DNA of 64,000 bases from Trypanosoma brucei. Taxonomy: Eukaryota. The notes under the pieces were generated by a model. That model had not been told where the DNA came from and did no database searches. It saw nothing but the letters and a program-made list of their open reading frames with translations. Shown in pieces: positions 10,784 to 45,620 of the stretch (positions within the stretch are counted from its first letter, which is position 1; each line of letters opens with the position of its first letter). The position numbers and the translations under genes are program-made. The stretch is taken from the NCBI GenBank assembly GCA_000002445.1, contig CH464491.1:3552001-3616000 (forward strand). Direction: 5' to 3'.

Positions 10784-12706
10784 TCACCAAAAACAAACGT
10801 ACGCAGCGAGTGCAAAGGCTGTTAAGGAAATCCCTGTGCCGATCATCGCCCCGCCCGTTGTTTCGTTGCAAATAAAATAATAATCAGACAGCGTAATGCA
10901 AAGCACGCCGGACACCAGTAGGGCCACTGGGTTCATTACTAACAGGGTACACGTCGTGGCCAGTCCAAGCACCTTGAGCGCGTGATTCCGCAGGAAGCAT
11001 TGGAGTACAAACAAAAACAACCACAACAGGGCCGCAGCGATGTAACATGCGTAAGAGTAGTGTAAAAAGTGATTGTGCTCCTCCAGGTAACGCAGTGGCG
11101 TATTCTCAACGTCCGTGACAAGAGGGATATGATGCTGACGCCACGGCACCTGACTTTTGTACCAAATCTCTGAGGCACCCGGAGGGTCTTCCGTCACTAT
11201 CCGAGGGTACTTAACGCTGCATTGATAACTTATAGAGGATATCCTCCCTGGGCGTCGTAGAGGGTCCAGGTATGAATCATCAAAATAATTCCTGTTACGC
11301 TCCTCCACCAAACGAACGTAGACAGGCATCGTCACGGCGATTGTTTGTGGTCTCTTCCCCGTCTCACACCACCTACTGCTGCTATTAGCGTCGAATGGAT
11401 CGAAGCTAAGCGCATATCTCGTTCCGATGTGCTTGGAGATAACGAGTTGGGTGTGGTTGGAGAATACACTTGAGTTGTATAATTCGTCGAAGTACAACAG
11501 CACGAAACACACCTCCTTCTCTCCGGCTCCCGGGGACGCGCAGTGAGGCAAGAAAGTCTTTTCTTCCTTGTCCGTTGTTATTGGCCTCCACCGTACATCA
11601 GACAAGGGAGCAGGTAATATGGCAAATGCGGGCTCACGACTCAAATCCACTAATTCACAACCTTTTCCCGGTACCAGCTCCACCACGGGAGCCCCGAGCA
11701 ATTGTCTGGTACTTTCCACACGCGTCGTGGTCAGTGTGGTGATGGTTCCCAACACACTTCCTGTGAGTAAGAGGAATGCAGCCCACGCCAACAGCCTCAT
11801 GCTGTTTTGTTTTTCCCCCGGTGTGGAACCAGTGCCCAGAGGAATGATAATGAACACAACTTGCACTATCACCAACCCCAGCAGAATAAGAAATGCTATG
11901 CTCCCAAGGACGGCATCACTATAACGTTCAGCAAACCTCACCCCAACATAATATGAAAAGAAAAAATTACCAGCACAGGCCGCCGCACTGAGAAGAGCAA
12001 TGGCAATACACCAACGCACGTGTTGTGTAGAACTTTTCTCAGTCGCGCGTTCGTCAAATTCGGCAGCCTTTTGCCGTTCCCTGAAGTACTCATCTCTCGT
12101 CACTATTCTGGGCCTTCCCACCATCTTTTGGAGGTAACGGGGGAGCTGCATTAAGCGTCGCCCCAAATCGAGCCGGTTGTAATACGTCCAATGTGGTGCC
12201 AAATTTGCAAAGAAGCGCCAATATCGACACACTTGACCTGCGTTCAGTATTTCACGCATATCTAAGCTAACATAAAGAAATATGACGGACAGTATTTCGT
12301 CATTGAAGGGACCAACTTGACTAGGTAGAACGGCGTTCTTTGTCGAGCGGTGCGTTTTATACGAGATGCACGCACGAAACTTCAGAACATCCTTCCGGGT
12401 GTTGGTGAAACGGAAGGCAATACTTTCTTCGTCGTCTTGCACCACAATTTCACCCCTCCGTTCGGTGAACTCAGTGCCTCCAACCATTGTCATCTCTTCC
12501 GTCATACTACCCCATTCAAAGTTGTAGTTGGGTGAGCAATCACGGTACCGCGCCGCTCGGTTATATTCCCTGTTAACTGGGGTTCTTTTTGCGTGCTCTG
12601 CACCATGATGATTACTACTAGCGGGTGATGTGATATCGTCGGCCCCGCAAAAGTCTGCCGCGTTATCAGGCGGATTTGCACCCTGCGCATGGGTTTGGTG
12701 GGTCAT
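10784..12706 (-). CDS. F-box domain-containing polytopic membrane protein, 640 aa
   Basis: ATG at 12704-12706. F-box-like motif LPSQVGPFNDEILSVIFLYVSLDMREILNAGQVCRYWRFFANL (LPxEIL..IF.YL....L.....VC..W). Followed by several hydrophobic helices (IAFLILLGLVIVQVVFIIIPLG, LLAWAAFLLLTGSVLGTITTL, C-terminal cluster). Confidence 0.65.
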   Translation of the reverse strand: MTHQTHAQGANPPDNAADFCGADDITSPASSNHHGAEHAKRTPVNREYNRAARYRDCSPNYNFEWGSMTEEMTMVGGTEFTERRGEIVVQDDEESIAFRFTNTRKDVLKFRACISYKTHRSTKNAVLPSQVGPFNDEILSVIFLYVSLDMREILNAGQVCRYWRFFANLAPHWTYYNRLDLGRRLMQLPRYLQKMVGRPRIVTRDEYFRERQKAAEFDERATEKSSTQHVRWCIAIALLSAAACAGNFFFSYYVGVRFAERYSDAVLGSIAFLILLGLVIVQVVFIIIPLGTGSTPGEKQNSMRLLAWAAFLLLTGSVLGTITTLTTTRVESTRQLLGAPVVELVPGKGCELVDLSREPAFAILPAPLSDVRWRPITTDKEEKTFLPHCASPGAGEKEVCFVLLYFDELYNSSVFSNHTQLVISKHIGTRYALSFDPFDANSSSRWCETGKRPQTIAVTMPVYVRLVEERNRNYFDDSYLDPLRRPGRISSISYQCSVKYPRIVTEDPPGASEIWYKSQVPWRQHHIPLVTDVENTPLRYLEEHNHFLHYSYACYIAAALLWLFLFVLQCFLRNHALKVLGLATTCTLLVMNPVALLVSGVLCITLSDYYFICNETTGGAMIGTGISLTAFALAAYVCFW

Positions 12707-13043
12707 AACACCGCTACTACTCGGTCACAGTCCTCCTTCCCTTTTCCTCCTTTACACAAAAGCAACAGAGAAATGAGGCAGAGAAGAAGAGCAGTACACA
12801 AACGTGGAATGTGAGGTAATAACCACATGCTCCGAGGCGTTGCAGATTTGTGGCTCCGTGAATATGCACCCGACGGTGGTACTCCTCGTTCACACGTAAG
12901 CTACAAAAACAGGCGGCGTGTACCCACCATTGTGTACTCACGTCTTCTGGTTTCCCAAGAAGTCCCTGCCACCACCTGGAGTGTTCTCACTTCCAACTAT
13001 TATAAAATAATAATATACAGTGATATGGCGGTCCTTCACAACT

Positions 13044-14849
13044 TTACGCGTTTTGGGGTGGAAAAACCTTTACCCCGCCAAATCGCTCACGCTCAAGCCG
13101 CTCCCGTTGCTCTCGCAAGTGCTGGAGGCCCTCGGGTACACCTATAACAAATTCACCGGGGCGTCCGCGGCGCCGGACATCAGTGAGCTGCGCAACTCGA
13201 CGCCTCAGCCCCTTACTCCATAGATGCGATGCCACGTACGCCTTCTCATCTTCAGTGCGTGGGAAACCAAACCGCCAAAGCCACGTCGCTTCCATCCGTG
13301 CCTCCTCCCCGTAGTCGCTTTGATCTCCGAGGTTACTCTTACCATCGCGCTGCTGCTGTCGCTCCGGGCCCTGACCAAACGGTGCGTCTTCTGGGTGATC
13401 CACGTCGAGACTACTATCTGCTGCATTGTCCCACTCATGCATCTGGCGAGACTCAATGAGACGCATAGCTGCTGAACCGTCTATTACATCCGCACCTGCA
13501 CAGCATGACGGCTCGTGGAACAGACAACCACGTTGTCTGAAATCCCCGTAGTTAAGCGTGAGCTCTTCCCCCTTTTTGATCAGCCGCGAAGCTACCACAA
13601 CAACACCAATGCCAGAGCGGTAGCGGTATGTCACGTTGTGACTGCGGACGGAGTGGTTCAGCATGTCGAGAAAGGGAACCACTGCTACTTTGGGTGGTTG
13701 GGCGCGCTGTTGCTGCCGGTGGGGGATAAAGTGCAAATTCACAGCACGGGACCTCATCATAAAGTGCGACCAACGAAGCTGTTCGATAGTTTTGGGGTCC
13801 CCACCAGCATCGTCGTCACCGGGCTGGTTAGTGGTGGAGGTTGGCGGGGTTGGCAACAAGTTGTCAGCAAACATACACCTTTGCAGCGGTGTAAGAATGT
13901 CAGAGTAGACTGACGTCTCTAGCTGCACCAGCTGCTGTTGCGCCGCTGATAAGGAGCCCCGACTCTTTGCGAGGTTTGCCTCATGTTGTCGCTGAGTTAG
14001 TGGGTGCCTCTTACCACGGCAGAACGCCGCGATCAGCGGTTCCGTTGCTACTACCTCTACCTGCGGTTTGCTGACGGCATCAATTCCGCAAGACTCAGCG
14101 GCCTGCAGCATTAACTCGACAGTCGCCACGTCCGTGTCGGCATGCTCCAGCGGCGATGAAATGAGTGCCGTGCGGGTGCCAGCCCGCAAGCGACGCTGGA
14201 GTGGCGTAAAGGCAGACGCCCTTTTCTCTTGTAACTGTAAGAGCAATCCCATCGGTGGTACGCGTGGTGGGAGGCTGGAAACCCACTTAGTCAGTGGGTG
14301 GTTTACTCCGCCATGCCTGAGGGTGTAGAGCGCAAGTGTGATCAGTAACGAATCACGTGTTGATAAAAGGTGTGGCATCCCACTCACAGTCGCCAGGCGG
14401 CGCCTTAGCTCAGCGTAGCTTGTAAAATTTCCACCCGCGGTAGCGTGCTGGAGAACGCTGTCAGCAATTTCGCCATGTAGTATGTGCGACTCTGGTACAA
14501 CGCAAAGCTGCTCGCCCCTACAAATGGAGCGGCTGGCCACAACACAACGGAGTGGTGCTCTCAGAACATTGTCCTTCCCCGTTCCCCGCGATTCAATTAC
14601 TTGCGTCAGAGCATCGCTCAAAATGGAGAGTCCGTTAGACCATTCACCAAGTCCGTGCATTGTCCGACAACATCGCATCTTCACACGACGGCTCAGCGAT
14701 GCTGGACTCCCGGCAGTGCCTTCGCTATGCTGGTAAAACGGCTCACCCCCAAGTAATTCGGCGAAAACTGGAAAGGAAAAAAAGAAGTGAAAGAAGAGTG
14801 CACGAGCAGCGACGAAGAAGGATTGGGTGCCGCCTGCTACAGCGCGCAT
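13044..14849 (-). CDS. SET-domain protein (lysine methyltransferase-like), 601 aa
   Basis: ATG at 14847-14849. SET signatures VVPFLDMLNHS (NHS/C motif) and GEELTLNYG (ELxxxYG). The N-terminal ~60 aa are hydrophobic/low complexity, so the true start may be an internal Met. Confidence 0.7.
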   Translation of the reverse strand: MRAVAGGTQSFFVAARALFFHFFFSFPVFAELLGGEPFYQHSEGTAGSPASLSRRVKMRCCRTMHGLGEWSNGLSILSDALTQVIESRGTGKDNVLRAPLRCVVASRSICRGEQLCVVPESHILHGEIADSVLQHATAGGNFTSYAELRRRLATVSGMPHLLSTRDSLLITLALYTLRHGGVNHPLTKWVSSLPPRVPPMGLLLQLQEKRASAFTPLQRRLRAGTRTALISSPLEHADTDVATVELMLQAAESCGIDAVSKPQVEVVATEPLIAAFCRGKRHPLTQRQHEANLAKSRGSLSAAQQQLVQLETSVYSDILTPLQRCMFADNLLPTPPTSTTNQPGDDDAGGDPKTIEQLRWSHFMMRSRAVNLHFIPHRQQQRAQPPKVAVVPFLDMLNHSVRSHNVTYRYRSGIGVVVVASRLIKKGEELTLNYGDFRQRGCLFHEPSCCAGADVIDGSAAMRLIESRQMHEWDNAADSSLDVDHPEDAPFGQGPERQQQRDGKSNLGDQSDYGEEARMEATWLWRFGFPRTEDEKAYVASHLWSKGLRRRVAQLTDVRRRGRPGEFVIGVPEGLQHLREQRERLERERFGGVKVFPPQNA

Positions 14850-16352: not shown

Positions 16353-17102
16353 TCATGAATCGTGTAATCCGCCACTTTTCCTTTCCTTTAGAAATGCATC
16401 TAGTGGCACGATACCTACGTCATCCACAAGCTGCTCATACGGTTTATCCAAGTACCATTCCCACGGCACGTTAAGTATACATGAAACAAAGCGCTTTCCG
16501 TGTAACTGACGGGGAGCATTGGCACGTGCCCACTCATTATACATGCCCATGTTAAGGATCTGATCCATCCTGAGCCATGGCATACCACCCAATACCGCCA
16601 TAAGTCCAACCGGAAGGCCCGTGTGCTGCCACTCGAAGAGTTTCACTGCCAACTCCTCTTCGATTGTCCGCCCTAAGCCTACATATGCATGAACAAAGTC
16701 GTGAATCTGCCGATACCGAAGCATAACGTATGCGAGCGTTGGGTCGCTAACGTGCAGGATGGGTGCCCTTCCACTCGGTAGAAAATTGTTTCGTTTCATA
16801 AATGCTGCGTACCGGTACCCAAATGTTCCCTCTGGTTGTGTCTTAGCAAACTCCAATGTCTCGTCCGTTACCTGCGGTCTCTCTTTTAATATCGAGCGTC
16901 CCATTTCGTCCGCCATCATCAGCCGCTGCATGTGATGCAAGGCTGTTAACGCTGTAATCTCAGCAAATGCCGCACTTCCTCTACCATCTTCCGGGTCGAC
17001 AATGGCACCGAAGCTCGACGTGACAAACGCCGGCAGAGACTTTACGGCGCCGGCGATACCGCCAAGAAACATGACCGCGGACGAAACCACCCTACTCTGC
17101 AT
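16353..17102 (-). CDS. COQ4: Ubiquinone biosynthesis protein COQ4 homolog (~249 aa)
   Basis: HDFVHAYVGLGRTIEEE matches the COQ4 zinc-ligand motif HDxxH-x10-E. Tool ORF 16353..17387 carries ~95 extra N-terminal codons. Those codons translate the polypyrimidine tract (FFFFYHYCYLFCYF). First plausible ATG is 17100-17102, giving MQSRVVSSAVMFLGGIAGAVK, which is presequence-like. Confidence 0.7.
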   Translation of the reverse strand: MQSRVVSSAVMFLGGIAGAVKSLPAFVTSSFGAIVDPEDGRGSAAFAEITALTALHHMQRLMMADEMGRSILKERPQVTDETLEFAKTQPEGTFGYRYAAFMKRNNFLPSGRAPILHVSDPTLAYVMLRYRQIHDFVHAYVGLGRTIEEELAVKLFEWQHTGLPVGLMAVLGGMPWLRMDQILNMGMYNEWARANAPRQLHGKRFVSCILNVPWEWYLDKPYEQLVDDVGIVPLDAFLKERKSGGLHDS

Positions 17103-17766
17103 TAATAACTGGGTACGATACAAACCCTTCCTTCTGCTATGGGCGATTGTGAGGAAAAGGGGTATGGATAATATGTTCAGGTCGTTACGGGGTGGTTCGG
17201 AGTAAACCGGGGATGGAAAAAATTCGGGAAAGAGGGTGAGTGCGGTACGACTAGAAAAGGGTTGGGGATTTAGAAAGTAGCAGAATAAATAACAGTAGTG
17301 ATAGAAGAAAAAAAATAGAGCGGGAACGAGCCCCCATGTGTTTCTTTCAAAGTGCAATGTACCATCATTGCCTGTTGGCATGCACATAAACCAAGAAAGA
17401 AAGCCGCCTCAAGGTATCTGCACTGCTTCTCTTGTCACCATTGCCCTTCGGTGGCCTGGTATTAAGGCAGTGCAACAGACACAAATAAATAAACAAGAAT
17501 TCTCCGTAAGGCATGGTGGGGCTGCCATCGTCAACAGCCCCACGAATAATCACTCACCGTAATCGATAATTATTGAGCTGTACGGCAGGATCCGGTTGAA
17601 TAACCCACCAACAAAAAAATGTGAGTGCCATGTTGCCGGTGCTTCCGGGCTACGCACAACACAAATTTCCGGCGGCACAGCAACGACAAATTTTCACCTA
17701 TCTCTCGCCACCCATGTGGCACCGTAGAGTATGTCTCATTTTCACCGCCAGTCCTGGAATCATTGC

Positions 17767-18777: not shown

Positions 18778-19878
18778 TTAGCGCTGCCGCCGTCTGGACT
18801 CGTGCCTTCCGCCTGCATTTCCCCTTTCCCTGCTGCTCCTACCCTTCTTATCGTTATGGTTATTATTTCCCCGCCGCTGGCGGTTAGTGTTCATGTAATG
18901 TCCCCCCCGGAATGGTATGGCACCGCCATCGAAGACAATGTTGTCCGGGCTCACGAAGCCACCACTGAACTCGTCGCCGGGACCGCCATAGCCATAAGGA
19001 TCATTGTCCGTAAAATCATCATCGTCATCTATGCCCATAAAATCAACCTCAGGAGACTCTGCGTAATAGTTGAAACCATAAAACCGTTGTCTCGCACGGG
19101 GTAGCGATTTGTTGTCTTCACTCCACCGATTAAACTCCGCTACAACATCAGTTGTTTGCTTTCCTAGCGCGTTGGCAATGAAATCAAAACTTTTGCCGTC
19201 TTGGTACATGTTCACCATTGCCTGCACGTCAGCATCGGGCCATGTAGTTGTCTTCTTTCGAGTCTGGCCACCTTTTGCGTGCTGCTGTTTTTCGCCGTGC
19301 TTCGCCTTCTTCTGCCCCCTGCCCGCTTCAGTGGTCCGCTGCTGGTGGTGGTGGTGGTGCCTCCAGCTACTGTCGCGCGAAGGAGAGGCCTGTTCAAACG
19401 CCTCGTTCTCGGCTTGTCGGTGCATTTCTTCCCACATCATTTCGTAAAATGTTGGATTAATTTCCTCATGCCACGGTTGATACGGCTCGTCATGTGGAGC
19501 ATAGTATGAGTGCTCACTACTCGCCCTGACTCCGCCGGAGGCGCAATTATTTTTTTGGTGCATACCGCACCCACCTAATTGGTGGAGACGCCGGAGTGTG
19601 GCGTACGCGTTGTTAATGTTCACCATACGGGAAGAGGCACCGGTCCCCTCCTCTCCACTGACGTCGGGGTGGTGCTTCTTGGCGAGCTCAACGTATCGAC
19701 GCCTGATGTCTTCAAATGTAGACGAAGTGGCGACGCCGAGTGTTGCGTAAGCGCTGCGTACCTCCCCTTCCGTTGGTGCCTGTGTTGCCATGAAACGACG
19801 CTGGAGGGATCGAACGCTCCTAAATGCAGCCCAACTGCGCATGATTGGGTACCTCTTCAGAGAATAACCGTTGAACAT
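18778..19878 (-). CDS. DnaJ (J-domain, HPD motif) protein; start ambiguous (19878 or 20019)
   Basis: J domain DAYATLGVATSSTFEDIRRRYVELAKKHHPDVSG. Tool ORF begins with TTG at 20106. In-frame ATGs sit at 20017-20019 (MSCVVHLFV..., followed by a hydrophobic helix) and at 19876-19878 (MFNGYSLKRYPIMRSWAAFRSVRSLQRRF, presequence-like). His/Gln-rich tract (RHHHHHQQR) and Gly/Asn/Arg-rich C-terminus. Confidence 0.65.
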   Translation of the reverse strand: MFNGYSLKRYPIMRSWAAFRSVRSLQRRFMATQAPTEGEVRSAYATLGVATSSTFEDIRRRYVELAKKHHPDVSGEEGTGASSRMVNINNAYATLRRLHQLGGCGMHQKNNCASGGVRASSEHSYYAPHDEPYQPWHEEINPTFYEMMWEEMHRQAENEAFEQASPSRDSSWRHHHHHQQRTTEAGRGQKKAKHGEKQQHAKGGQTRKKTTTWPDADVQAMVNMYQDGKSFDFIANALGKQTTDVVAEFNRWSEDNKSLPRARQRFYGFNYYAESPEVDFMGIDDDDDFTDNDPYGYGGPGDEFSGGFVSPDNIVFDGGAIPFRGGHYMNTNRQRRGNNNHNDKKGRSSRERGNAGGRHESRRRQR

Positions 19879-20274
19879 TTGGGAGGCCAGCGTGTGGACG
19901 CGTAGAGTGCCCAATAAGAAGAGAGCGTGGAAAAGAATAGTTATGACCACAAGGAGGTCAGCAATAAATACAAGACAAGGGGTACACATATGTACAAAGA
20001 GGTGTACAACACAGCTCATAGTACACTGGTAACAATGAAGAAAGGCGATGTGGCTCAACCTGTCTTCGTAGCAAACAATAACAAAATCAAAAATAAAGAA
20101 GAACAAAAAAAAATCTCTTCACAAGCGAGAGAGAAGAAATCCCTACAATGAAAGCTCACAATGAACAAAGATAAATAAACAAATAAAGGATTGAAGAAAT
20201 AACGCAAATCTATTATTATTATTATTTTTCTCCCCTTTCTCCTTCTGTGCCATGGTCACTTCTACCATGTTCAC

Positions 20275-21189: not shown

Positions 21190-21621
21190 TCACCCTTTGC
21201 AACCATCCGCGTCGTCAAACGGTGCCCCACCGTAGCATTCCCGCCATTCGGCAAAACTCCCAACAAAGTTCTTCACGTAACGATAACCTAATCCCTCTGC
21301 AATTTCAGTGGCGGTGGCGGATCGCACACCCCTCTCACAGTAAAATATCAACTCTGCTTCGTCCTTACGTGGCTTTGGGTGTCCGAAAGTCTTCACAAAC
21401 TCTTCCTCGTCCACCTCGTCACTTAACGCAGCTGGCAATGCATTCAGTGGAATATTGACAGCGGTTGGAATAAGACCTGTCGCTGCAACCTCCCCTGTTG
21501 AACGCACATCCACGATGATTTTATTTGCTGCTGCCCGGCTTCCGCCAAGCTTTGACCTCACTACAGCCAGCACTTGAGGTGCAGTGATGGTCGCTAATGC
21601 ACGCGGCGTTACGAAAAACAT
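21190..21621 (-). CDS. Rhodanese-domain protein (~143 aa) with CERGVRS active-site loop
   Basis: Tool ORF begins with GTG at 21708. ATG at 21619-21621 gives MFFVTPRALATITAPQ. Rhodanese motifs IIVDVRSTGE...FYCERGVRSATA...FAEWRE with catalytic Cys present. Paralogous to the neighbouring gene at 20275-20688. Confidence 0.6.
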   Translation of the reverse strand: MFFVTPRALATITAPQVLAVVRSKLGGSRAAANKIIVDVRSTGEVAATGLIPTAVNIPLNALPAALSDEVDEEEFVKTFGHPKPRKDEAELIFYCERGVRSATATEIAEGLGYRYVKNFVGSFAEWRECYGGAPFDDADGCKG

Positions 21622-24001
21622 TTCCAGTGAGTCGTTTTTTTGTCCTGTTTGCGCTCTTGCGTCCTCGCCTGAGACAATAGCAGAGTTTTGTCCCGGTACA
21701 AGCAGCACTTTCCCTCTTTACTAGTTCCCAGGCAAAAAAAAAAAACAGAAGGAGAGGGATAGGGAGAAGGACACTTTGATTTTTTTTTTTTTTGCAGAGC
21801 TTGCAAGTCCTCACGTCTTTTTTCCCCCATTCCGTGTGCAAGCCCGATAAAGGACGAATGGGAATAAACCATTTAACCAGAGAAATACTGTATAATAATA
21901 TAGCCTCTTACACTCACTTATAAAACCATTTTTTTTTTTTTGTTACCACCCTATTCGTCTCCTTTCCAAATATCACAATTCATTTAACACAATAGTGAGA
22001 TGAATTACACACCGCCCCTTCCTCAGTTCTATCATCGCTATTCCCCTCCCTTATCTTTTGCCAACCATTGCCTTTGCGGGAATCCACATTAAAAGAATTG
22101 TCACCACACGTCATACCTAAGTACAAAACACCATCTGTTGATATCATTCCATTCCATTCCACTTCCTTTTCTTTCCCTCACCCTCAACCTTCCCACCGTT
22201 TCCATCGGTTAGCTACGGTCTGTCGTAACCGTTTCTTCCCTCCATGCTACGGTAGGGTACCGCAGAATATAACTCAAAGACACAAAACGATACCATGCCC
22301 AACAATTTCTCTCCACACTAAAAAACAACAGCAACAACAGCAGCACAAAGTGTGTGTTTTTCTAAAAAAAAAAAAAACGCCCCCTAAAAAAAAAAAATGG
22401 GCGAAACCGGTTGGGGACAGTTTCCCCTTTTGTTTCTTCTGCTTGTCACCCAATCCAGCTCACTGAATCAACGTGACTGCCCTTCACATTTTCATTACTT
22501 TTGTCAGTTAATGATAATCTCACTCGAAGGAGGTGAATGTTAGAGAAAACAACTAAACAACGACAAAAAGCAGCCTCCCCATATTTCCACTTTCCTCTCC
22601 ATCCTCACAAAAATATCAACATCATCCCTCCCCACACCATCGTTTTTGTTGTTATTATTATTACTTTCGTTATTCACTTATTAAACTTTACATCATGAAG
22701 ATCTCCGGGAGAGAAAGTGCATATACACACAAAGAGTCGAGTGCGAGGGGCCCTGCTGGAACCGGTCGGTCGCACATCCACTTTGCGGTGACCGTCAGCT
22801 ACGGTTGTAATAATTCCCATGTGGGAACTTCTTTCCTCCCTCTCCCCCCTTGGCCTATCTCTTTTCTCAGCATCCCGAGACACCCCGCCCCTGCTGCTAT
22901 TACCACGCGCCAACCCAAGTGAAAACAAAGAAGAAAAAAAACTGTGGTAAAAGGACATGACTATTACCTAAAGCAATAACCACAAAACAAAGTGACGCTA
23001 GCAACAAACAAGCACACAAAACTGCAATATAGAAAGGTAAGAAGGTTAGGGCATACCAAAGTTGCCAAAAAAATGTAAAAGGAATGCCAAAATCACCGAG
23101 GATGGGGCCAGACGCAGGAACAAAAGCAAGAATAAAGTAAGTCTGCCGCCGAGTATAAGCCCCGAACGCGCAAATCTTACCTTGTATTCTCGTCCCTGCC
23201 TCACAAACAAGCGTATGTGTACGCGTTCCCCTCCACACCCCTTTTGGCCAACTCATAGAAAACACTCCCGTTTAGCTACTTATTTACTTCCTCCTTTGGT
23301 TGTAGAGCCGGACGCGACGCGTACCCGGAGAACGATTCTTCAGGGAGAAGTAAAAGCAGAACATAATGCAAAAAAAAAAAAAATGAAAAAGATGTCGAAA
23401 ATGAGGCTGGTGACAAGCCCTTTGCAGGGCCGGCGCCTTTTCGCATCTCATATTGTGTTTGATAAATGATGTTTTTCTCTCCCTTTTCCCTGGGGAAGAA
23501 GGAAAAGAACCAGAATTGCAAAAAGAAAAAAGAAGACAACAACTATCTGAAATGAAAACAGAGAAAAAAATACACATTGCGCATACACTAACAATAAATA
23601 TCCCCACCCATGTATGGGAAAGAACGGCAACAACACCAAAAGAAAATAGAATATAAGCACAAAAAGGGAGAAAAAGAACCTGAATAAAAGAAGTGTTCAT
23701 ACTCGTACACATCTGCAGCTCCCCACACAAAATGTCACTGGCATATTGGAGGAAAGGATTCAATAAATAGGAATAACACGGTGGAGCTTTTATTATTATT
23801 ATTTTCTTTAGTTCCTGGAAATGCATTGATTTTCTGTAGATTTCCCCCTGCCTGTCTTTAACAAACTAGTGAACCTTCAATGGCCTACATTACCGCAAGT
23901 AGCGGTGGTGTTCCCACTATAAAGGTGGGGAATTGACCCAGAATCCACTTCCCTGCAGCTTTCCGGCATCACTTTTTTACATACAACCAATTAATTGAGC
24001 A

Positions 24002-26521
24002 CTATTTCTCCCGTCTGCGGACGACAAAGGCCACCGTATTCAAGGGCGATCCATTGAACTTGAATCGAGACTCCAACATGTTTCCGCTTTTATCGATGAA
24101 GGACAAAAGACAAGGGGTAGTACGTAGATTGACCTTGTCTCGTGCATAGGTTGCGGAGTAGAGCGCGCTAAAGCATATCTCCGAAACCGCACTGTACTCC
24201 TCCCCTATTTCGCTCTTGAGGATGTAATGGTGTCTGTCTAACAAGTCAACCTCGACAACGAAGGTACAGTATCGAGCAAGGGATGTCCAACGCACTAGGC
24301 ATTCCAGGGGTTCACGCTCTCCGGTGGTTGCGGCAAGAAGGTGACGCATGATCACGAAATCGTACATTTTTCCACCAACGCTACCACCATCAAAGACTTT
24401 ATCAATCCGGATATTACCGCAAAGCACGGTGCGTGACTTATTACTGCTGGTAGAGAGCCCTATGTTACAAGGCTTTGCGCACAACAGCCGTTGTGCAGCA
24501 GGGTTTTTCATAATTCGATCTGCTTCCCGCGACGTTGGCAGTTCACACGTTTTCTGCCGATGGTTGGTGGGCTTTGGAAGAACAATAAGAACGCTAATGG
24601 TACCCGTGGCAGCACCTTCAGCACCATAGACCCCGCGTTCCGGGAAACCGAAGCGTTTTGCATTATTTTCTGGTGTTATCCACTGCTCCCGTTCATAGTT
24701 AACCGCTACATCTTCCGTCTGGTAATCGAAGGCCTCGTTACGTAGCCAATCGCCCGACTCACTGTCACAGATGGGTGCACGCCTCCGCGCTTGCTCGATC
24801 TCCAAGCGCCTCCTTCGCCTCCTTTCCTGCTCCTCCGGTGGCATGTCCTTGAGGTAGCGTGTCCCCCCGAAGTTGTAATCCTTCAACTTGACGTTAAGTT
24901 TGTGCATGCCCATGGAGCCTTGGAGCATACCAATTTCATTTATGCATGCATTATCCAGGTGGGCGGCAAACATTCCCCAGAAGCTTTGCTCTTCCTTCTT
25001 GTTTACTTCACGGTCACCAAATGCTCCACACATCAGCTGCTTCGCTACATCGCACAAGTCAAAAAAGGCAAAGTTCATGGCAGACGTATTGTTCCAACTG
25101 AATCTTGTGCGGGTCGGGTTGGTCTCCTTTTGATGTTCCCATTCCTTTTTCACGAGTTGTAGCCAGTGTGTTCGACTCTGAGTCCATATGTTAACGAACT
25201 CTTCTCCAAACATTTTTTGGAGATTTTCCTTGTCAAGATAATGCCGCTTATTCATAGCTTCGTTCAAAATATCGCCCTTCTCGCTGAACCCACCCAAATA
25301 ATGCATTTGCACATTGGTGTGCTTGTGGACTGGTATAATTTCTTCCGGTGCGCGCCGCGGTAGTCCATCAGCTACTTCCACCGGCTCACCAAACAGTTCC
25401 GTCATCAGCGATGCATTTTCTCGCACCAAGCCGTGCAACCTGGTGAGCATCGCAGCTGCACAGCCACGTAGGGCCCATGCACTTGCTGCACAACTAAACG
25501 GTGTCAAGGAAACCGGATATACCGGGGCAGGCTTATTGGTGTTTTCTCCGTTGTCCTTCTGCTCAATATGGTTGAAAGAGAGCGACGTGGATTTTTCTTC
25601 CTTAGCCTTCTTAAGGCGCCTCCGGTATTCCTCCACGCAAGGTTGCTCCCCCAGAGCCGCCCTATAGTAGAACACACACGACAACCGATTCCAGGTAGCG
25701 TTGGCCTCCTTGGCCTCTAGCTCCGTGTTTGAGTGGAACAGGTGCGTGTCGAAGAGTAAGACATCTGTTGGCTGCATGTTGAAGCAAACACCATAGTCAT
25801 CGAGGGCTAGGCTAAGACCACTATACTCACCTTTGAGCACAGCTAGGACACCATAACCGTTATCGAAGTCGCCATTGTCTGTGTGTGAGGCGGTGCGAAA
25901 CCGCTCATTGACTGTCAGTGTCGAAAAAGGAGAACCGTGGATGCGTACTACGTCCGGCACCGCTGCATCCTGTGCTTTCCAGTGGTCTGGAAGAGCAGCC
26001 TTATAAATTGCGCTCGTATAGTCAATCATAGGGAACACACTTCGCCACTCTTTAGTGTGCTCGTAGGTAAAGGAGGTCTTGCGACACTTCAGTTCCACGG
26101 GGGTACCACGGTAGTCGAAATAACCAGCAATGCCACTATTAGGGGAAACCCCACCGAACAGTGCCGAACGAAGGGAGGTACGCGCCACCGCGCACTCAAG
26201 GACGTCCGCTGCCATAGAGGTTGCGAACGATGGTAGAGCCTTTGGTATTAACACCCCACAGACCTTTCCCTTTGCGTTTCTGAACACTGTGGTACCATGG
26301 AAGTCAACTGTATGGTCGGCGTTGTTGTGAAATGGATGCTTTTTCACAGCCTCCTGAAAGGCCTTTTCGGCCTTCTCCCTCGCCTCGGCATCAATCTGGG
26401 AACCCTGCATGTAGTGGTTAAAGGCGTACACCACATCATTCGACGGTTGATAAACGTCCCAGCCGGGTTTCATGGAGTCATCTGCTTTCTCCCTCAGTAC
26501 CTTCTTCACCTGCCTTCGCAT
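24002..26521 (-). CDS. JBP1: J-binding protein 1 (thymidine hydroxylase, Tet/JBP family; base J biosynthesis), 839 aa
   Basis: N-terminal region matches JBP1 (AFQEAVKKHPFHNNADHTVDFHGT..GKVCGVLIPKALPSFATSMAADVL, compared with Leishmania JBP1 YAEAVKSHPFYDN..VVDF..GVVLREALPKYAASMASELL). Fe/2OG signature RTASHTDNG...FDTHLFH. Tool ORF begins with GTG at 26530. Real ATG at 26519-26521 gives exactly 839 aa, the T. brucei JBP1 length. Confidence 0.9.
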   Translation of the reverse strand: MRRQVKKVLREKADDSMKPGWDVYQPSNDVVYAFNHYMQGSQIDAEAREKAEKAFQEAVKKHPFHNNADHTVDFHGTTVFRNAKGKVCGVLIPKALPSFATSMAADVLECAVARTSLRSALFGGVSPNSGIAGYFDYRGTPVELKCRKTSFTYEHTKEWRSVFPMIDYTSAIYKAALPDHWKAQDAAVPDVVRIHGSPFSTLTVNERFRTASHTDNGDFDNGYGVLAVLKGEYSGLSLALDDYGVCFNMQPTDVLLFDTHLFHSNTELEAKEANATWNRLSCVFYYRAALGEQPCVEEYRRRLKKAKEEKSTSLSFNHIEQKDNGENTNKPAPVYPVSLTPFSCAASAWALRGCAAAMLTRLHGLVRENASLMTELFGEPVEVADGLPRRAPEEIIPVHKHTNVQMHYLGGFSEKGDILNEAMNKRHYLDKENLQKMFGEEFVNIWTQSRTHWLQLVKKEWEHQKETNPTRTRFSWNNTSAMNFAFFDLCDVAKQLMCGAFGDREVNKKEEQSFWGMFAAHLDNACINEIGMLQGSMGMHKLNVKLKDYNFGGTRYLKDMPPEEQERRRRRRLEIEQARRRAPICDSESGDWLRNEAFDYQTEDVAVNYEREQWITPENNAKRFGFPERGVYGAEGAATGTISVLIVLPKPTNHRQKTCELPTSREADRIMKNPAAQRLLCAKPCNIGLSTSSNKSRTVLCGNIRIDKVFDGGSVGGKMYDFVIMRHLLAATTGEREPLECLVRWTSLARYCTFVVEVDLLDRHHYILKSEIGEEYSAVSEICFSALYSATYARDKVNLRTTPCLLSFIDKSGNMLESRFKFNGSPLNTVAFVVRRREK

Positions 26522-27164
26522 TCGTCCCACCGCGTCTTCTTTTCCACCAGCTCCTCTATGTCCAGGACGTTATTTTTTCTTTTTCAAATCGTGCCGCACG
26601 TGAAACGGTACCCCGGTGACTCCGCACAAAATACGCCCCAACGCTGCCAGCTAGCCCCCTTCCCGGAGTCAAAGGATTGAAGCTCGTGCGGGGCCTTTGT
26701 CTGCTGTAGCTGCCTTTCATCAGATAAAGAAGCATGATTGGTGGAAAAGAGTGTTGGCAGCAGCTTGAAAAGGAGGGAAACCAACGATAGTATCCAAGGA
26801 ACAAGGTATGGGAAGAAAATGCAGCGATCAGCCATAACCGGCCGGGGAAAAAACTAAAAAAAATATAGGAAGAGGGGAGAATGATGGTGTCCGAGCTAAA
26901 CAAATAACAAGCCAATCGAGTCACCCGCTTACGATCACTCCTCTACATTGTACAACACTTGTGTGATTGATCACACAATAGAATGACTCGCAGCGATAAG
27001 GGTGCCATCATAAAACGGCTGGTGATGGTGTGTGGAGAAGCGGCAACGCAGCGTTAAGACGATAAGAACATAAGGCAGATGAATTCGTGCACCCGCGCAG
27101 GTGCAATACACTCGTACCTTTTGTGTGTACTACACAATAGATAAAGAAATAGAGCGGATTAGAC

Positions 27165-39197: not shown

Positions 39198-39401
39198 TCT
39201 ATAAAGCTATTCGCAACGCAAATTGACAAGTGGTTAGAAAAGTGGGTAAACAAGCGGCCATAGCAAAAGAAAAAGCGAATGGAGAAGTATAGCACCAAGT
39301 CAACCACCCCCGTGAAGTGGCGCGCATATTTATTCGATTGAGTCGAACGCACACTGAACGGGAAAGAGACAAAACAAGAGAAAAAATTTGCGTTAGCAGA
39401 G

Positions 39402-39959
39402 TCATCTTTCTTTGTTGAGAAACTCTGCCCGCTGTTTTGCGAACAACTCTTTCTCGAGTTTCTTAATACGCTTATTGTTATAACTCTCTGCCGCTACTAC
39501 CAGTACTGGCACTGTAATTAGGCCTAAACAACATCCACAAGCGAAAACAAGACCAACCTTCGCTGGGATGCGGTTCTTTGGGCTTCTAAAAGCGTACACG
39601 GCAGCAGCAAAACTTCCCACAATAATCCCCGCGTCCAATCCCCGTTGCATTGGTTCACAGGAAAGAAAGAATCGCCACTGCTGTGAAAGCGCTCTTCTCT
39701 TTGCATCCCCGACGTTGAGACCCTCCTGTTCTATTATGTACTGTTTGAGATCCTTGACTTCGGAATCAGGATAAAGCTTACCCCTGTCTCGCTCGTCCTG
39801 AATGGCTGACATCATTTCCAGTGTCTCCTTTTTAGCAACCTTGTACCGCCCACTTCTTATGAGGTCGTCGATATTGGTAGACTCATGCTCGGTTGCTACA
39901 CGGCCTTCCGAACTGATTTCATTTGGCTCTTGTTTCTGGGTGCTCTGAAGGTGACCCAT
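39402..39959 (-). CDS. Small membrane protein (~185 aa) with two C-terminal hydrophobic helices; first gene of the minus-strand cluster
   Basis: Tool ORF extends to 40055. ATG at 39957-39959 gives MGHLQSTQKQEPNE. Helices GIIVGSFAAAVYAF and VGLVFACGCCLGLITVPVLVVAA. KR-rich coiled tail. Confidence 0.5.
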   Translation of the reverse strand: MGHLQSTQKQEPNEISSEGRVATEHESTNIDDLIRSGRYKVAKKETLEMMSAIQDERDRGKLYPDSEVKDLKQYIIEQEGLNVGDAKRRALSQQWRFFLSCEPMQRGLDAGIIVGSFAAAVYAFRSPKNRIPAKVGLVFACGCCLGLITVPVLVVAAESYNNKRIKKLEKELFAKQRAEFLNKER

Positions 39960-40445
39960 AGTACTACGTGACAACGGTAAAAGAAAAAAGAGGAAGATAT
40001 TGCCAATCACAAGGAAGCATGCATCGTGGTGGTAGCACATAAACAACAGTAACAAAAGATGCGCGAGATACCTCTACTCTTAAGAACATAGTATATTCAT
40101 TCGCTGCATGCAGATACTCATCGCCCGCCATTACCTCCCAAAGCATAGTGAACGCATGCACAACATGAGCGGTATTAAACGGCGACGAAAGGGGTTCAAA
40201 TAGCCGCTGATGCTTGTACCAAAACAAACAAGCGTACAATAATGAAATAATGGGGGGAAAACAACCGACGGCATTTTCAATCGCTAAAAACCGTCACGTT
40301 ACAACACGGACTCTTCGTGCACGGTTGTGACAGCTAATATATTATGACATCAAGAGTGGCAGCAAAGATAAGGTAACAGCATCCCAATAAAGTGAGGGGA
40401 AAACGGGGTGATGATGCACCCGCACCGAATATCAAACAATTTACA

Positions 40446-40455
40446 GGGGGGGGGG
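40446..40455 (+). repeat. G10 homopolymer in the SSR minus arm
   Basis: ttaca-G10-tgtaatccc. Confidence 0.9.
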
Positions 40456-42909
40456 TGTAATCCCATAGACTCGCATAATGGAAGACACGCTCTAACAAAT
40501 ATATTTCACGTACTGTTGTTACGATACACATGAGAAAAAAATTCGGGGTAGCAGTTCAGGGCAAGCAAAGAGTCGCACGGAATGAGAGAGAATGGGAAAG
40601 AGATATCCCTCGCTACGTATTGGCCGTGCCTTGGCAAACAGGGGCGATGTATCTTTGACAAAACCGGTGAATAGGGGTCCACATCTCATAATCGGCGAAA
40701 CAACGGCCGGGTGCTACAAAATATGAATCACCAGAACAACTATTTGGTCGACGCAACCACTTGTTTATCATACCTTTCGGAGCGGTACAGGAAAATGTTT
40801 CAAGCAGAAAACAGATCCCTTTTTACGCAGAGCAACATATTACTTGCCAAGTGACAAAACAACCACGGCACCACCACCTATTATAAACGATTGATGATTC
40901 ATTAAGCATGATAAACTAAAGTTTTTACTGGTGAAGAATCAATTAACCATTACGTTGCAGCATATGTCGCAAAGCACATAAATGCCCCCATTTACATAAA
41001 TTTCAGGAAAAAAAAACCAACCCTCTCTAGGAACAACCCCCGGTCGTCGAGCCGCCAGCAATTAAACTTATCGCAGGCGGCACCTTCATATTGGAAGGGA
41101 AGGAGACAAACTGATAACCGATAACAACATTACAGGTGTCTGACACAACCCACAAAAAGTAAGCAAACCGTGCGACACAACGATGACAGCACATCGAACA
41201 CAAAAAAGAAAAAAAATAAACACAATCAAAGAGAAGCAAAGGAAACACCGAAAAACATTTGGTGCTCACCAGAGGGGGTTGGTAGAAAAGTAAACAGCCC
41301 CCGAGGTAGCATTTCGCTATTGTCTGCTTAGTATTGAGATAATAACAGTCTTCTAGTAGTGGCTTGTAGGAATAATACGCGCGACGATTCTCTTTCAAAG
41401 TGTTGGCAAGCTAACTCGGTTCCAAAAGAGGACCGAAGGAGCGAATCAACAACGAGGGCAAATTACTTAGAGTATATCCATCTGTCCTGAATCCGACGGT
41501 AAGTCACACATATGCACTTTAAAAGGCTCCTCGAGTATCGGCAGGGGGCTCGGAACGCACTTGCTCTCAACGACCTAACCAATCAGAGACCACGAACTAA
41601 GAAAAAAAAAGGGTGCCACAATAATGTAAAAGAAGCAGATTTGCCAGACCGCTCATTGAGTCGAAAGATATTTGTACCGTTTGCCGTACAGATAGTTCAT
41701 CGGTATCCGACATACTCTTCCGGGATCGCAGCGCATGCATTGCCATCCATTGATAAATCGTAATCGATGCAATCGCCACTAACGGCCGCAATTAAGAGAA
41801 TCAGCTCTCCACTATCTAAACTCTTAAGAACATAACCAACACAGCGTAGACAGCTCCCTCACGGGGACACCGGACCCATATCGAGCATCAATTGACTCCC
41901 ACACACAACCCTATTCACTGTAGCCAACACAGGCATTCCCATATTGACGGACCGCTATGATCGAGTAACATTCTTAACGCCGAAACGGTGAGGCACAACC
42001 CACGAAAATATAAAACAACACCCCCTTAGGAATGAGCCAGCAGGCCTCCGGTGCGAGCGCACAAAAAACCCAACGGAACATCCCCCGAATAACCGGCCGA
42101 ACAGCGGCGTCAACCCGCGGCATCGGGGTCTCTCAACAAAACAAAGGACGCGCCAGCATTCTTCATTTGAGAACCGAGCCCTCCGATACCAAGAAATGGG
42201 AGGCGACCCATGGTCCACCGGGTGGGCACACCAGAGTCTGATCCTGCGATTGAAACCCCCGCCCCGCGTAAGGGATCTCCCCAAGAGGAAGCAAGCGATC
42301 CACAGCAAAGGACAGACTCCTCCAGCCCCACCCCCACACGAGGTGGAGTCGGTGTCCCCCTCCCTACTCCGAAGTAAGTGCAAGCACTCTTCACCGGGGG
42401 AAGAGGGCGGACAGCCGAATGTGGAGCCCTGCCACGGACTAGCCAACAGCACCGAAGGCTACATGACTAGTAGCGCATCTGCACGAGCGGCACCGCACCG
42501 GGTGTTAAAAACTGTAGACCGTATGGGTCGTGGGGGAAAGTGGCACCGCAGGGGCGTAGGGTCCCGTTTTTTCTTCTCGCATTGCGGTGTCAAGCCCTCC
42601 CCTCCATGTGCGCCGCGTTTCTGCAACTGTAGGACCCCCACTGGGCCCGCCGGCGCCACCGGTGCTCGCTATCGGTTGCTTGGTGTGTATGTGTCCTTTC
42701 CCAGTCTTCGCACTTTGGGGTGTTCACGTATGGTTCTGGCGGTGCCGGCTCCGCCGTGGCGGGAACGATCCGCTAGGCGGGCAACGGCGTTGTTGCAGTT
42801 TTGCTACTTGGGTGATGGCGGACCGTCTGTTTGTGTATGAGCGGAAGTTTTTACTCGCGCTAGCGCATTTGGCACACCGCCTTTGGGATGGTCAGAAGTT
42901 TTTGCACGC

Positions 42910-42924
42910 GGGGGGGGGGGGGGG
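42910..42924 (+). repeat. G15 homopolymer (C15 on the minus strand) in the SSR core
   Basis: cacgcg-G15-atgcg. Longest homopolymer G run in the window. Confidence 0.9.
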
Positions 42925-43087
42925 ATGCGTTCTGAATTGCACTTTTCCTGTGCATCCGTTGAGGTCGGCTATTTTCAGGGTTGGTTGGTCGTTTGCAACT
43001 TTTGCCATCCGTCGGGTAACAAATTGCCATGTATTTCAGGGAGGTGTGCGAGTCCGAGGATGGTGCGGTGTGTCATGTTGCTGTAGT

Positions 43088-43095
43088 CCCCCCCC
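43088..43095 (+). repeat. C8 homopolymer in the SSR plus arm
   Basis: gtagt-C8-tccc. Confidence 0.85.
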
Positions 43096-44111
43096 TCCCA
43101 AATGCGGAGGAGCTTGTAGCGTGGAATGAGTTTGCTCAATTTACGTGGTAGCCTTGTTTTTGTGTATCCATATGTAGGGGAGGAGCTGTCAGCAACCCTT
43201 ATGGCCGGAGAGCATACACAGTCAGTACACCGAGGTTGAATGCAGTTGGGGAGCTCTCCGGTTCGATTACAGCGTGGATGCAAGTTGTTGTTTTTGTTCC
43301 CGTGCCCCCATAGTCGTGAAGTTGTGTTGCTCAAGCGCGCTGCGACAGAGTAACTGATGAATCTTTTATTGTACTAAACCTATGTAACCGCCCCTCCTCC
43401 GCAATACACAAAAAAGAGCCACCTTGCAACTAGCTCCGAAAATCGGACTAGCTTTTTTCAGACGTATGCGTTGCCCCACGCTGATACACGGGTTCCGAAT
43501 GCGAGCTATGTCAAGCAACCTTTGTTTAAGTTTGTGGTTGCACCTTTGTAATGCGCCATCGTGGCTATGTGGTTATGCGACCACCTCGCCAGCTGTAGGC
43601 GTCTCCTCTCCCTCATGACCCAAATTTTTGGGATGGAGCGACGGGACGTTGAGTTTTTTTGTTTGCTTAGAAAACATTACTGTACAGCGCTCCACAGAAC
43701 TACGCAGTAGCATCTCCCTGTGGCTGAAGATATCAATTTAGCCGTTAGTGTAAGGTTGGAACCTCAGGTGTTTTGTTATCACGTTTCGGTTCCTTGCGCC
43801 GAGAATTTCCGCGAGTAGAGGTGCCGGTTGTGAATATTTTGTTGCGTAGTTCTATCTTACTGCCTTATCCACATGCTTTAACAGCAGCACCCTAGTGCAA
43901 AGCGAAGTAGGATTTGTGCGCCCCTGAGACAGTGCAGCACGATATGACATTCATTTGTGAAGGTGATGTGGAGGAGAAACCAACAGGTTCCAGTATCGCA
44001 ACCTCTCATATCGGGTGCCAGCAGTTTTGAAAGAACCACCACTGCTGCTGCCATCGGATGTTGTAGACTTCCTATTTGTAAGTGAAGGTGCGGTTTGTTC
44101 GTTTCCCCTAC

Positions 44112-44127
44112 TTTTTTTTTTTTTTAG
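44112..44127 (+). promoter_or_regulatory. Polypyrimidine tract (T14) plus AG dinucleotide: predicted trans-splice acceptor signal for the ODC mRNA
   Basis: ccccTAC-T14-AG sits ~155 nt upstream of the first ODC ATG. This is the canonical kinetoplastid SL-addition signal architecture. Confidence 0.5.
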
Positions 44128-44282
44128 AGACCGCGGGGAGGGCTTTCCTTGCTTCCCAGAAATATTATGTTTAAACACGCATGTGCGTCGGTAGCAAGCC
44201 TGGTAAAATTTGTCTGTACCATTTCCAATGAAGCGGTAGGGAAAGAGGCGGTACTGGGGAGGGATTAAGCAGTAAGGCAAAT

Positions 44283-45620
44283 ATGACCACCAAATCAACC
44301 CCCTCTTCTCTCTCTGTGAATTGTCTTGTAGCACAAACGGAGAAATCTATGGACATTGTCGTGAACGATGACTTGAGTTGTCGCTTTCTTGAAGGGTTTA
44401 ATACGAGGGATGCCCTCTGTAAAAAGATCAGTATGAATACGTGTGACGAAGGTGATCCGTTTTTTGTTGCCGATCTCGGGGACATTGTAAGGAAGCACGA
44501 AACATGGAAAAAATGCCTTCCCCGCGTCACGCCGTTTTACGCGGTCAAATGCAACGATGACTGGCGCGTACTTGGAACGCTGGCGGCTCTCGGCACGGGA
44601 TTTGATTGTGCTAGCAACACTGAGATACAACGTGTGAGAGGCATTGGTGTGCCACCGGAAAAAATAATATATGCGAACCCTTGTAAACAAAATTCACACA
44701 TACGGTACGCGCGTGATAGCGGCGTTGATGTCATGACATTTGATTGCGTGGATGAACTGGAAAAGGTCGCTAAAACGCATCCAAAGGCAAAGATGGTATT
44801 AAGAATTTCTACGGATGATTCGTTGGCTCGATGCCGTCTCAGTGTGAAGTTTGGTGCAAAGGTGGAAGACTGTAGGTTTATCTTGGAGCAGGCAAAGAAA
44901 CTGAATATCGACGTCACTGGTGTGAGTTTTCACGTGGGAAGCGGATCTACAGATGCCTCTACCTTCGCTCAAGCCATATCTGACTCCCGTTTCGTTTTCG
45001 ACATGGGTACTGAGCTTGGGTTCAATATGCACATTCTTGATATCGGTGGTGGGTTTCCAGGGACGAGGGATGCACCACTTAAATTTGAAGAGATTGCTGG
45101 TGTCATCAACAATGCGCTGGAAAAACATTTTCCACCTGACCTCAAGCTTACCATTGTTGCCGAGCCGGGAAGGTACTACGTTGCTTCAGCTTTCACACTT
45201 GCCGTAAATGTTATTGCCAAGAAGGTGACACCAGGGGTTCAGACCGACGTCGGTGCCCATGCTGAATCAAACGCACAGAGTTTTATGTATTATGTGAATG
45301 ATGGCGTGTATGGTTCATTTAATTGCATCCTGTATGACCACGCAGTCGTCAGGCCTTTGCCCCAGAGGGAGCCAATCCCCAATGAAAAGCTCTATCCCTC
45401 AAGTGTATGGGGTCCCACATGTGATGGTCTTGATCAGATAGTTGAACGATACTATCTTCCCGAGATGCAAGTGGGGGAATGGCTGCTCTTTGAGGATATG
45501 GGTGCCTACACGGTCGTAGGAACTTCTTCCTTTAATGGATTCCAGAGTCCGACTATTTACTATGTAGTCTCCGGGCTACCAGACCATGTTGTCCGGGAGT
45601 TGAAAAGTCAAAAATCATAA
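44283..45620 (+). CDS. ODC: Ornithine decarboxylase, 445 aa (PLP-dependent; no C-terminal PEST region)
   Basis: ATG at 44283. Sequence [26 protein letters not shown]...FYAVKCNDD...(PLP Lys)...GFDCAS...HVGSGS...GGGFPG...WGPTCDGLD matches T. brucei ODC. A second in-frame ATG lies at 44349 (MDIVV). Confidence 0.95.

Follow-up and report, generated by a model that had tools for sequence, protein, structure and literature searches.

The F-box/transmembrane gene Tb927.11.13550

A 64,000-nucleotide stretch of Trypanosoma brucei DNA (assembly GCA_000002445.1, contig CH464491.1, positions 3,552,001 to 3,616,000 of the forward strand), hereafter called the window, carries on its minus strand, at 10784–12706, one uninterrupted open reading frame (ORF) of 640 amino acids (aa) that begins with an ATG, with the limits and length given in the preliminary description of this DNA. 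This gene, Tb927.11.13550, encodes in a single polypeptide an F-box and a polytopic membrane domain. The preliminary description had pointed to this unusual combination, and the ORF itself, Pfam scans, hydropathy, structure prediction and the orthologs all agree with it.

The product of the ORF shows 100% identity to XP_829411.1 / EAN80299.1 / UniProt Q382I2 of T. brucei brucei TREU927. This protein is recorded as 'hypothetical protein, conserved' on a 5.26-Mb chromosome-11 record; the automatic name given by UniProt to Q382I2 is 'F-box domain-containing protein', and that of the T. equiperdum copy reads 'F-box-like, putative'. The gene identifier (old identifier Tb11.01.5150) was assigned through the primer table of TrypTag: the C-terminal tagging primer of Tb927.11.13550 matches window positions 10787–10844 (-) exactly, i.e. 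the final codons before the stop, and therefore fixes the identity of the gene, while the N-terminal primer corresponds, in reverse complement, to ATGACCCACCAAACC..., at the first ATG of the ORF. The identifiers Tb927.11.13560–13630, which had been estimated by gene counting, were thus wrong for this ORF. Anchored on JBP1 (Tb927.11.13640, chr11:3,635,538-3,638,057), the gene maps to about chr11:3,622,320-3,624,242(-). A polypyrimidine tract of about 40 nt, followed by an AG, sits about 44 nt 5' of the first ATG and is likely, from the standard trypanosome signal, to be the spliced-leader acceptor.

The F-box region

The preliminary description had placed an F-box-like segment at about residues 125–170. 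Indeed, the scan of the translation against the Pfam hidden Markov models gives a significant match of aa 136–169 to PF12937 (F-box-like), with E=2e-6 and 27.9 bits for a gathering cut-off of 24.3. When 23 relatives are scanned singly, 12 of them match PF12937 at E<=0.01, and it is the sole Pfam family that recurs among them. Furthermore, a profile built from this region of about 60 residues in 24 family members and searched against the PDB sequences retrieves 11 sequences at E<=1, all of them from F-box proteins and with the alignment falling on the F-box; they include FBXO22 (the best match, 9e-4), FBXW7, FBH1, TIR1, FBXL3 and SKP2. Several short proteins that the full-family profile reaches through the F-box region alone are themselves Pfam F-box proteins.

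The same segment is the most conserved one of the family. Across 27 relatives, the mean frequency of the top residue per column is 0.56 for aa 128–175 and 0.23–0.46 elsewhere, and these 48 residues hold 9 of the 26 columns that are conserved at 80% or more. C160, W163, P171 and W173 are invariant, and the hallmark positions of the F-box, in its hydrophobic helix 1 and in V/T-C-R-x-W-R, vary little or not at all between Trypanosoma and Prokinetoplastina. The family signature can be written P..GPF..(D/E)(I/V)L..I(L/F)L(F/Y)V ... (V/T)CR.WR(F/Y)..N..P(H/Q)W. That no other segment of the family is as constrained speaks for the retention of a binding function.

Structure was predicted with AlphaFold2. 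A first run on an alignment of 10 orthologs gave a mean predicted local distance difference test score (pLDDT) of 41.8 and was discarded; the model used here derives from the 23-sequence family alignment and has a mean pLDDT of 75.6. In this model, the F-box forms three short helices (136–144, 150–157 and 161–168) with block-mean pLDDT of about 78–88. The Kyte-Doolittle scale flags aa ~131–158 in some orthologs, so that the F-box might be taken for a misread transmembrane (TM) helix; this was rejected because the hydrophobic run is only about 12 residues long, is flanked by D, E and R residues and is modelled as three short helices. As judged from all these comparisons, aa 128–175 are a genuine region of F-box homology.

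The Pfam scans of the T. brucei protein and its 23 relatives return the F-box only, with no WD40 or leucine-rich repeats C-terminal to it. By its domain content, the protein would belong by default to the 'FBXO' (other) class of the superfamily.

The membrane domain and its predicted topology

At least four to five TM helices and a C-terminal hydrophobic cluster had been described in this protein. Its multi-pass nature stands; the count becomes six, arranged as three plus three around a loop. Kyte-Doolittle windows and the AlphaFold2 model agree on helices at ~232–257, 264–291, 298–329, 536–571, 576–605 and 615–639. The first three are separated from the last three by a non-hydrophobic domain of about 205 residues, and the protein ends at TM6.

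Upstream of the membrane part, the N-terminus is a hydrophilic stretch of 230 residues without a signal peptide; in the model, a helix starting at residue 204 runs continuously into TM1, and the 30 residues that precede TM1 have a net charge of +2.3. According to the positive-inside rule, positively charged flanks stay on the cytosolic side; in addition, long N-terminal domains are not translocated. The N-terminus is therefore expected to be cytosolic, since it is long and hydrophilic, lacks a signal peptide and is positive before TM1. With a cytosolic N-terminus, the TM3–TM4 loop would be luminal.

This loop is modelled as a mixed alpha/beta domain, with 10-residue block-mean pLDDT mostly between 78 and 94 (one block at 69). 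It has a net charge of -4.2, and its sequon density is 1.83 per 100 aa versus 0.70 in the N-terminal region (2.6x). Its family-wide conserved residues are C350, W373, C447, W515 and W522. It carries three sequons in T. brucei (N411, N417 and N441); the one at the N417 site is found in 10/10 trypanosomatid orthologs, and two further sites of the loop are shared by 7/10 and 6/10. A short loop in the TM5–TM6 region, also predicted to be luminal, carries C613 and the sequon N614-E-T, so that all four N-x-S/T sequons of the T. brucei protein fall within predicted luminal segments. The conserved cysteines and tryptophans of the TM3–TM4 loop and its sequon present in every trypanosomatid ortholog point to a luminal loop and to a cytosolic F-box. 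In the predicted topology, the F-box would thus face the cytosol, the compartment of Skp1, and the orphan domain would face the endoplasmic reticulum (ER) lumen.

Within the membrane, N247, E/Q282 and Q569 are conserved polar residues, and TM5 carries a motif N592-P593...G600..C603. The regions beyond the F-box match no Pfam family (in the protein and its 23 relatives), no PDB sequence and, in Foldseek searches, no significant fold. Comparison of the profiles of TM1–3 and TM4–6 with HHalign detects no mutual homology (probability 0.2%, E=0.36), and an internal duplication, such as the inverted 3+3 repeat of transporters, was therefore rejected.

Localization

In the TrypTag data (PMC9981465, supplementary file 2), the protein with a C-terminal tag is described as 'endoplasmic reticulum[weak]', and the one with an N-terminal mNeonGreen tag at the first ATG as 'cytoplasm[reticulated]'. 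The ER or reticulate pattern obtained with both tags identifies the product of Tb927.11.13550 as an ER-resident membrane protein. Furthermore, as the first-ATG tag and the C-terminal tag give this pattern alike, the end that carries the F-box is physically part of the membrane protein. The TrypTag signal also indicates that the gene is expressed in procyclic cells.

Conservation across Kinetoplastea

Full-length orthologs of 626–747 aa are found in T. congolense, T. vivax, T. cruzi, T. rangeli, T. grayi, T. theileri, Porcisia, Phytomonas and Angomonas; the N-terminal region is thus not a separate gene in these species. The prokinetoplastid Papus ankaliazontas has a more distant relative, and others are present in environmental assemblies (ENA, Logan). 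Altogether, more than 25 relatives across Kinetoplastea are known, and all the full-length ones display the order F-box, three TM helices, long loop, three TM helices, each with the F-box motif and the six TM segments retained. The search with the family profile yields 40 proteins; all those that bear an organism name are kinetoplastid, and a second word-indexed search, made with the family profile, returns known orthologs only. On the evidence of these searches, the F-box/six-TM architecture is conserved across Kinetoplastea since the base of the group and is found, among named organisms, only there.

T. cruzi has the same gene order (rhodanese, DnaJ, Coq4, SET, the F-box/TM gene, then genes of 510, 215 and 949 aa), and Porcisia still has the SET gene near the ortholog.

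Several members of the family depart from the common length. The T. congolense protein TcIL3000_11_13880 (723 aa) has a hydrophobic N-terminal extension of 83 residues that is absent from the other orthologs and probably results from a mis-called start codon. Some distant members (P0017, P0020, P0021, P0024 and P0030) reach 1100–1600 aa, with 500–900 residues ahead of the F-box.

In Porcisia hertigi (CM030512.1; L001:5360-6952 (+)), a divergent glycosyl-hydrolase-47 (GH47) gene separates the SET gene from the F-box/TM ortholog. Its product matches PF01532, the ER mannosidase/EDEM family, with 30.6 bits for a cut-off of 22.9. No GH47 gene is found at the equivalent position in T. brucei or T. 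cruzi. GH47 proteins act in ER-associated degradation (ERAD); gene order is rarely functional in kinetoplastids.

Features of the gene and of its surroundings

The segments of Tb927.11.13550 and the neighbouring genes are gathered in Table 1.

Table 1. Parts of Tb927.11.13550 and surrounding features, in window coordinates
Feature	Position	Strand	Basis or remark
Polypyrimidine tract (~12794-12754), then AG (12751-12750)	12750..12794	-	Likely trans-splice acceptor, read from sequence
Complete coding sequence of Tb927.11.13550, F-box/six-TM ER membrane protein	10784..12706	-	640 aa + stop; identity to XP_829411.1/Q382I2, TrypTag primer
N-terminal region, aa 1-114, predicted disordered and cytosolic	12365..12706	-	AlphaFold2 pLDDT <50; lowest conservation in the family
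F-box, aa 128-175 (Pfam match aa 136-169 = nt 12200-12301)	12182..12325	-	PF12937, region profile, AlphaFold2 helices, conservation
Linker from F-box to TM1, aa 176-231, helical, basic	12014..12181	-	AlphaFold2 secondary structure; charge
TM helices 1-3, aa 232-329; conserved N247, D264, E/Q282, R304, R329	11720..12013	-	Hydropathy, AlphaFold2, conservation
Orphan alpha/beta domain between TM3 and TM4, aa 330-535, predicted luminal and N-glycosylated	11102..11719	-	AlphaFold2, charge, sequons
TM helices 4-6, aa 536-640, up to the C-terminus	10787..11101	-	Hydropathy, AlphaFold2, conservation
SET-domain protein	13044..14849	-	
Coq4	16353..17387	-	
DnaJ-domain protein	18778..20106	-	
Rhodanese, Tb927.11.13610 (small)	21190..21708	-	Within a low-GC stretch at 20-24 kb, left of JBP1
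JBP1 (Tb927.11.13640), base-J-binding thymine dioxygenase	24002..26530	-	Tet_JBP and DB_JBP1 domains
Divergent strand-switch region	39200..44280		Large ORFs leftward all (-), rightward all (+)
Ornithine decarboxylase, Tb927.11.13730	44283..45620	+	445 aa from first in-frame ATG; annotated protein 423 aa
Receptor-type adenylate cyclase GRESAG4, Tb927.11.13740	48597..52283	+	Adjacent to the ornithine decarboxylase gene
CDC50/LEM3 flippase subunit	59933..61006	+	

None of the SET, Coq4, DnaJ and CDC50/LEM3 genes is obviously linked to the F-box gene. In the strand-switch region, the GC skew changes sign at about 42 kb and the AT skew shows a spike of 0.256 at 40–42 kb; it is probably the region where transcription of the polycistrons starts. 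The ornithine decarboxylase and GRESAG4 genes are located about 32–40 kb away from Tb927.11.13550, and both products have been reported as interactors or clients of TbCul-A (PMC12816148); the proximity of these genes to the F-box gene is probably a coincidence.

A candidate ER-embedded substrate receptor

Of the readings considered, the one that we favour for the product of Tb927.11.13550 is that of an ER-embedded substrate receptor of an SCF-type (Skp1-cullin-RING) ligase; we hold it with moderate confidence, the chances for and against it being about equal. The N-terminal ~230 residues, i.e. a disordered tail, the three-helix F-box and the basic helical linker, would lie in the cytosol, and the ~205-residue TM3–TM4 loop would be a luminal domain that is glycosylated and contains cysteines. 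The F-box would dock Skp1 and, through it, either TbCul-A/Rbx1 or a complex built on a kinetoplastid Skp1 paralog, on the cytosolic side of the ER. Clients in the ER membrane or lumen would be picked by the TM bundle, whose polar core is conserved, and/or by the luminal domain, and the cytosol-exposed parts of these clients would be ubiquitylated, leading to an ERAD-like or regulated degradation. The ORF, the F-box homology, the six hydrophobic helices, the conservation of the whole architecture in the family and the ER/reticulate localization are observed; the topology, the binding of Skp1, the SCF-type assembly and the nature of the clients are what we infer.

The machinery that such a receptor would need exists in T. 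brucei. Indeed, the F-box protein CFB2 binds SKP1 through its F-box in yeast two-hybrid assays (PMC8051951), and TbCul-A co-purifies Skp1, Rbx1, six F-box proteins and many membrane proteins (PMC12816148). T. brucei therefore has a working Skp1–F-box system. Arabidopsis CFB, with one TM helix, offers a precedent for F-box-dependent binding of ASK1 by a membrane-inserted F-box protein (PMC5853388).

Several points weigh against the proposal of an SCF receptor. The six F-box proteins that the TbCul-A study recovered with the cullin do not include the Tb927.11.13550 protein, and its identifier is absent from the portions of the supplementary tables available, although a weakly expressed polytopic protein could be easily missed (PMC12816148). 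Its association with Skp1 and a cullin is deduced from F-box homology, and its topology from sequence statistics. The E-values obtained against single solved F-box proteins are modest (~1e-3), and the full-length Foldseek query gives no significant match to an F-box structure, an entry of FBXW11–SKP1 being reached only at E=5.9. Finally, T. brucei has F134-N135 in place of the canonical Leu-Pro that starts helix 1; G-P-F-x is the consensus of the family, and F-P occurs in a few relatives. This dipeptide is common in F-boxes but not universal.

According to a first alternative, the F-box would bind Skp1 for another purpose than the recruitment of clients: it would be a handle for regulation or auto-degradation, or would belong to a non-SCF Skp1 complex, and the main activity of the protein (transport, handling of lipids or glycans, or a receptor or sensor function) would reside in the TM bundle and the luminal domain. 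There are precedents for both variants, since the interaction of the CFB2 F-box with SKP1 mainly destabilizes CFB2 itself (PMC8051951), and since the several Skp1 paralogs of kinetoplastids include SkpZ, which takes part in a non-cullin deubiquitinase complex with control over TM surface proteins (PMC11732084). The conserved polar TM residues and the N-P...G..C motif are also those expected of a protein with its own intramembrane activity, and the failure to recover the protein with TbCul-A, in what is accessible of that study, goes in the same direction. However, neither Pfam nor the PDB reveals any likeness to transporter or enzyme families, the two TM triads do not form an internal repeat, and the F-box exceeds the TM and luminal parts in conservation, which would be unusual for a purely regulatory appendage. 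We regard this alternative as rather unlikely.

A second alternative, which is unlikely, assumes that the three-helix module derives from an F-box but has degenerated and lost Skp1 binding, leaving an ER membrane protein without a link to ubiquitylation. The narrow excess of the Pfam score over its threshold (~3.6 bits), the missing Leu-Pro dipeptide, the lack of a significant three-dimensional match between the full-length query and solved F-box structures and, again within the accessible data, the absence of the protein from the TbCul-A interactome would all fit such a decay. It is difficult to reconcile with hallmark positions that have stayed invariant or nearly so between Trypanosoma and Prokinetoplastina, with an F-box that is the most conserved region of the protein and with a region profile that finds F-box proteins exclusively.

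The last alternative, a gene fusion or annotation artefact in which the F-box and membrane regions would be separate genes or the true start would lie downstream of the F-box, takes up the gene-fusion or annotation issue of the preliminary description; the unusual architecture is all that favours it, and the T. congolense extension shows that start codons can be wrongly annotated in this family, but it is effectively refuted by the single uninterrupted ORF, the 626–747-aa orthologs and the more than 25 relatives with the same order of domains, the synteny in T. cruzi and Porcisia, the splice-acceptor-like signal 44 nt upstream of the first ATG and the TrypTag tags at both ends, the reticulate pattern of the first-ATG tag, like that of the C-terminal ER tag, joining the N-terminus to the membrane part.

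Comparison with other F-box proteins and ER ligases

The protein shares with canonical SCF receptors (SKP2, FBXW7 and FBXO22; in T. brucei, CFB2 and the six F-box proteins of TbCul-A) an N-terminal F-box of about 45 aa with a hydrophobic helix 1 and a V-C-(K/R)-x-W signature, as well as a presumed client-binding part located C-terminal to the F-box. It differs from them by a six-helix membrane bundle and a luminal domain in place of soluble WD40, leucine-rich-repeat or other domains, and by the non-conserved Leu-Pro.

The documented membrane-associated F-box proteins found in the literature searches form three groups. In Arabidopsis, CFB (AT3G44326) and its group are, like the trypanosome protein, F-box proteins integral to the membrane without any recognized protein-interaction domain. 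CFB has one C-terminal TM helix, which is needed for its function, and binds ASK1/SKP1 in an F-box-dependent manner (PMC5853388). In contrast to the trypanosome protein, it has this single anchor and no luminal domain, and is distributed between plasma membrane, nucleus and cytosol. The second group, which comprises FBXL2 and FBXO10, is modified by geranylgeranylation of a CaaX motif; these SCF receptors act likewise from the membrane surface on membrane-associated clients (bioRxiv 10.1101/2024.04.16.589745). However, their prenyl attachment is peripheral and reversible and gives no access to the lumen or to the interior of the bilayer, whereas the Tb927.11.13550 protein is polytopic and ends with ...YVCFW right after TM6. 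The third group consists of fungal F-box proteins that are drawn with a TM helix or localized to the ER or plasma membrane.

Among ER ligases, the ERAD enzymes Hrd1, Doa10/MARCHF6 and their relatives are, like the trypanosome protein, multi-spanning ER proteins, and the trypanosome protein would similarly bring ubiquitylation machinery to the ER on its cytosolic side. They are RING-type ligases that bind ubiquitin-conjugating enzymes (E2) directly, whereas the link of the Tb927.11.13550 protein would be indirect, through Skp1, cullin and Rbx1. Pfam scans of the protein and of its relatives return no RING or RING-CH family, and the PDB sequence and Foldseek searches find no similarity of sequence or fold to Hrd1 or Doa10. 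It is conceivable, and we propose it only tentatively, that kinetoplastids possess a specific branch of ER degradation, in which a polytopic F-box receptor would recruit an SCF ligase directly into the ER membrane and would read luminal or bilayer clients through its glycosylated luminal domain and polar TM core, as an alternative or an addition to the RING-type Hrd1/Doa10 on which other eukaryotes rely.

Literature searches with exact phrases (transmembrane, integral-membrane or membrane-anchored F-box) retrieve no description of a polytopic F-box protein, and none of the main texts found mentions Tb927.11.13550 under any identifier or accession. The protein is thus a new architectural variant of the F-box superfamily, annotated as an F-box protein in databases and unstudied.

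Significance

In the usual view, SCF ligases are soluble machines, their F-box receptors get to membranes only peripherally, by a lipid anchor or a single tail helix, and polytopic RING ligases account for ubiquitylation at the ER membrane. If the reading as an ER-embedded receptor is true, the Tb927.11.13550 protein would be the first SCF receptor with the ability to sense clients within the bilayer or in the lumen. In trypanosomes, the turnover of TM surface proteins depends on ubiquitylation (PMC12816148, PMC11732084). The membrane proteins pulled down with TbCul-A include receptor-type cyclases of the GRESAG4 type, a flippase and glycosyltransferases (PMC12816148). Because TbCul-A pulls down many membrane proteins in this way, the Tb927.11.13550 protein is a concrete candidate for a receptor of membrane clients in a group that comprises pathogens of humans and animals.

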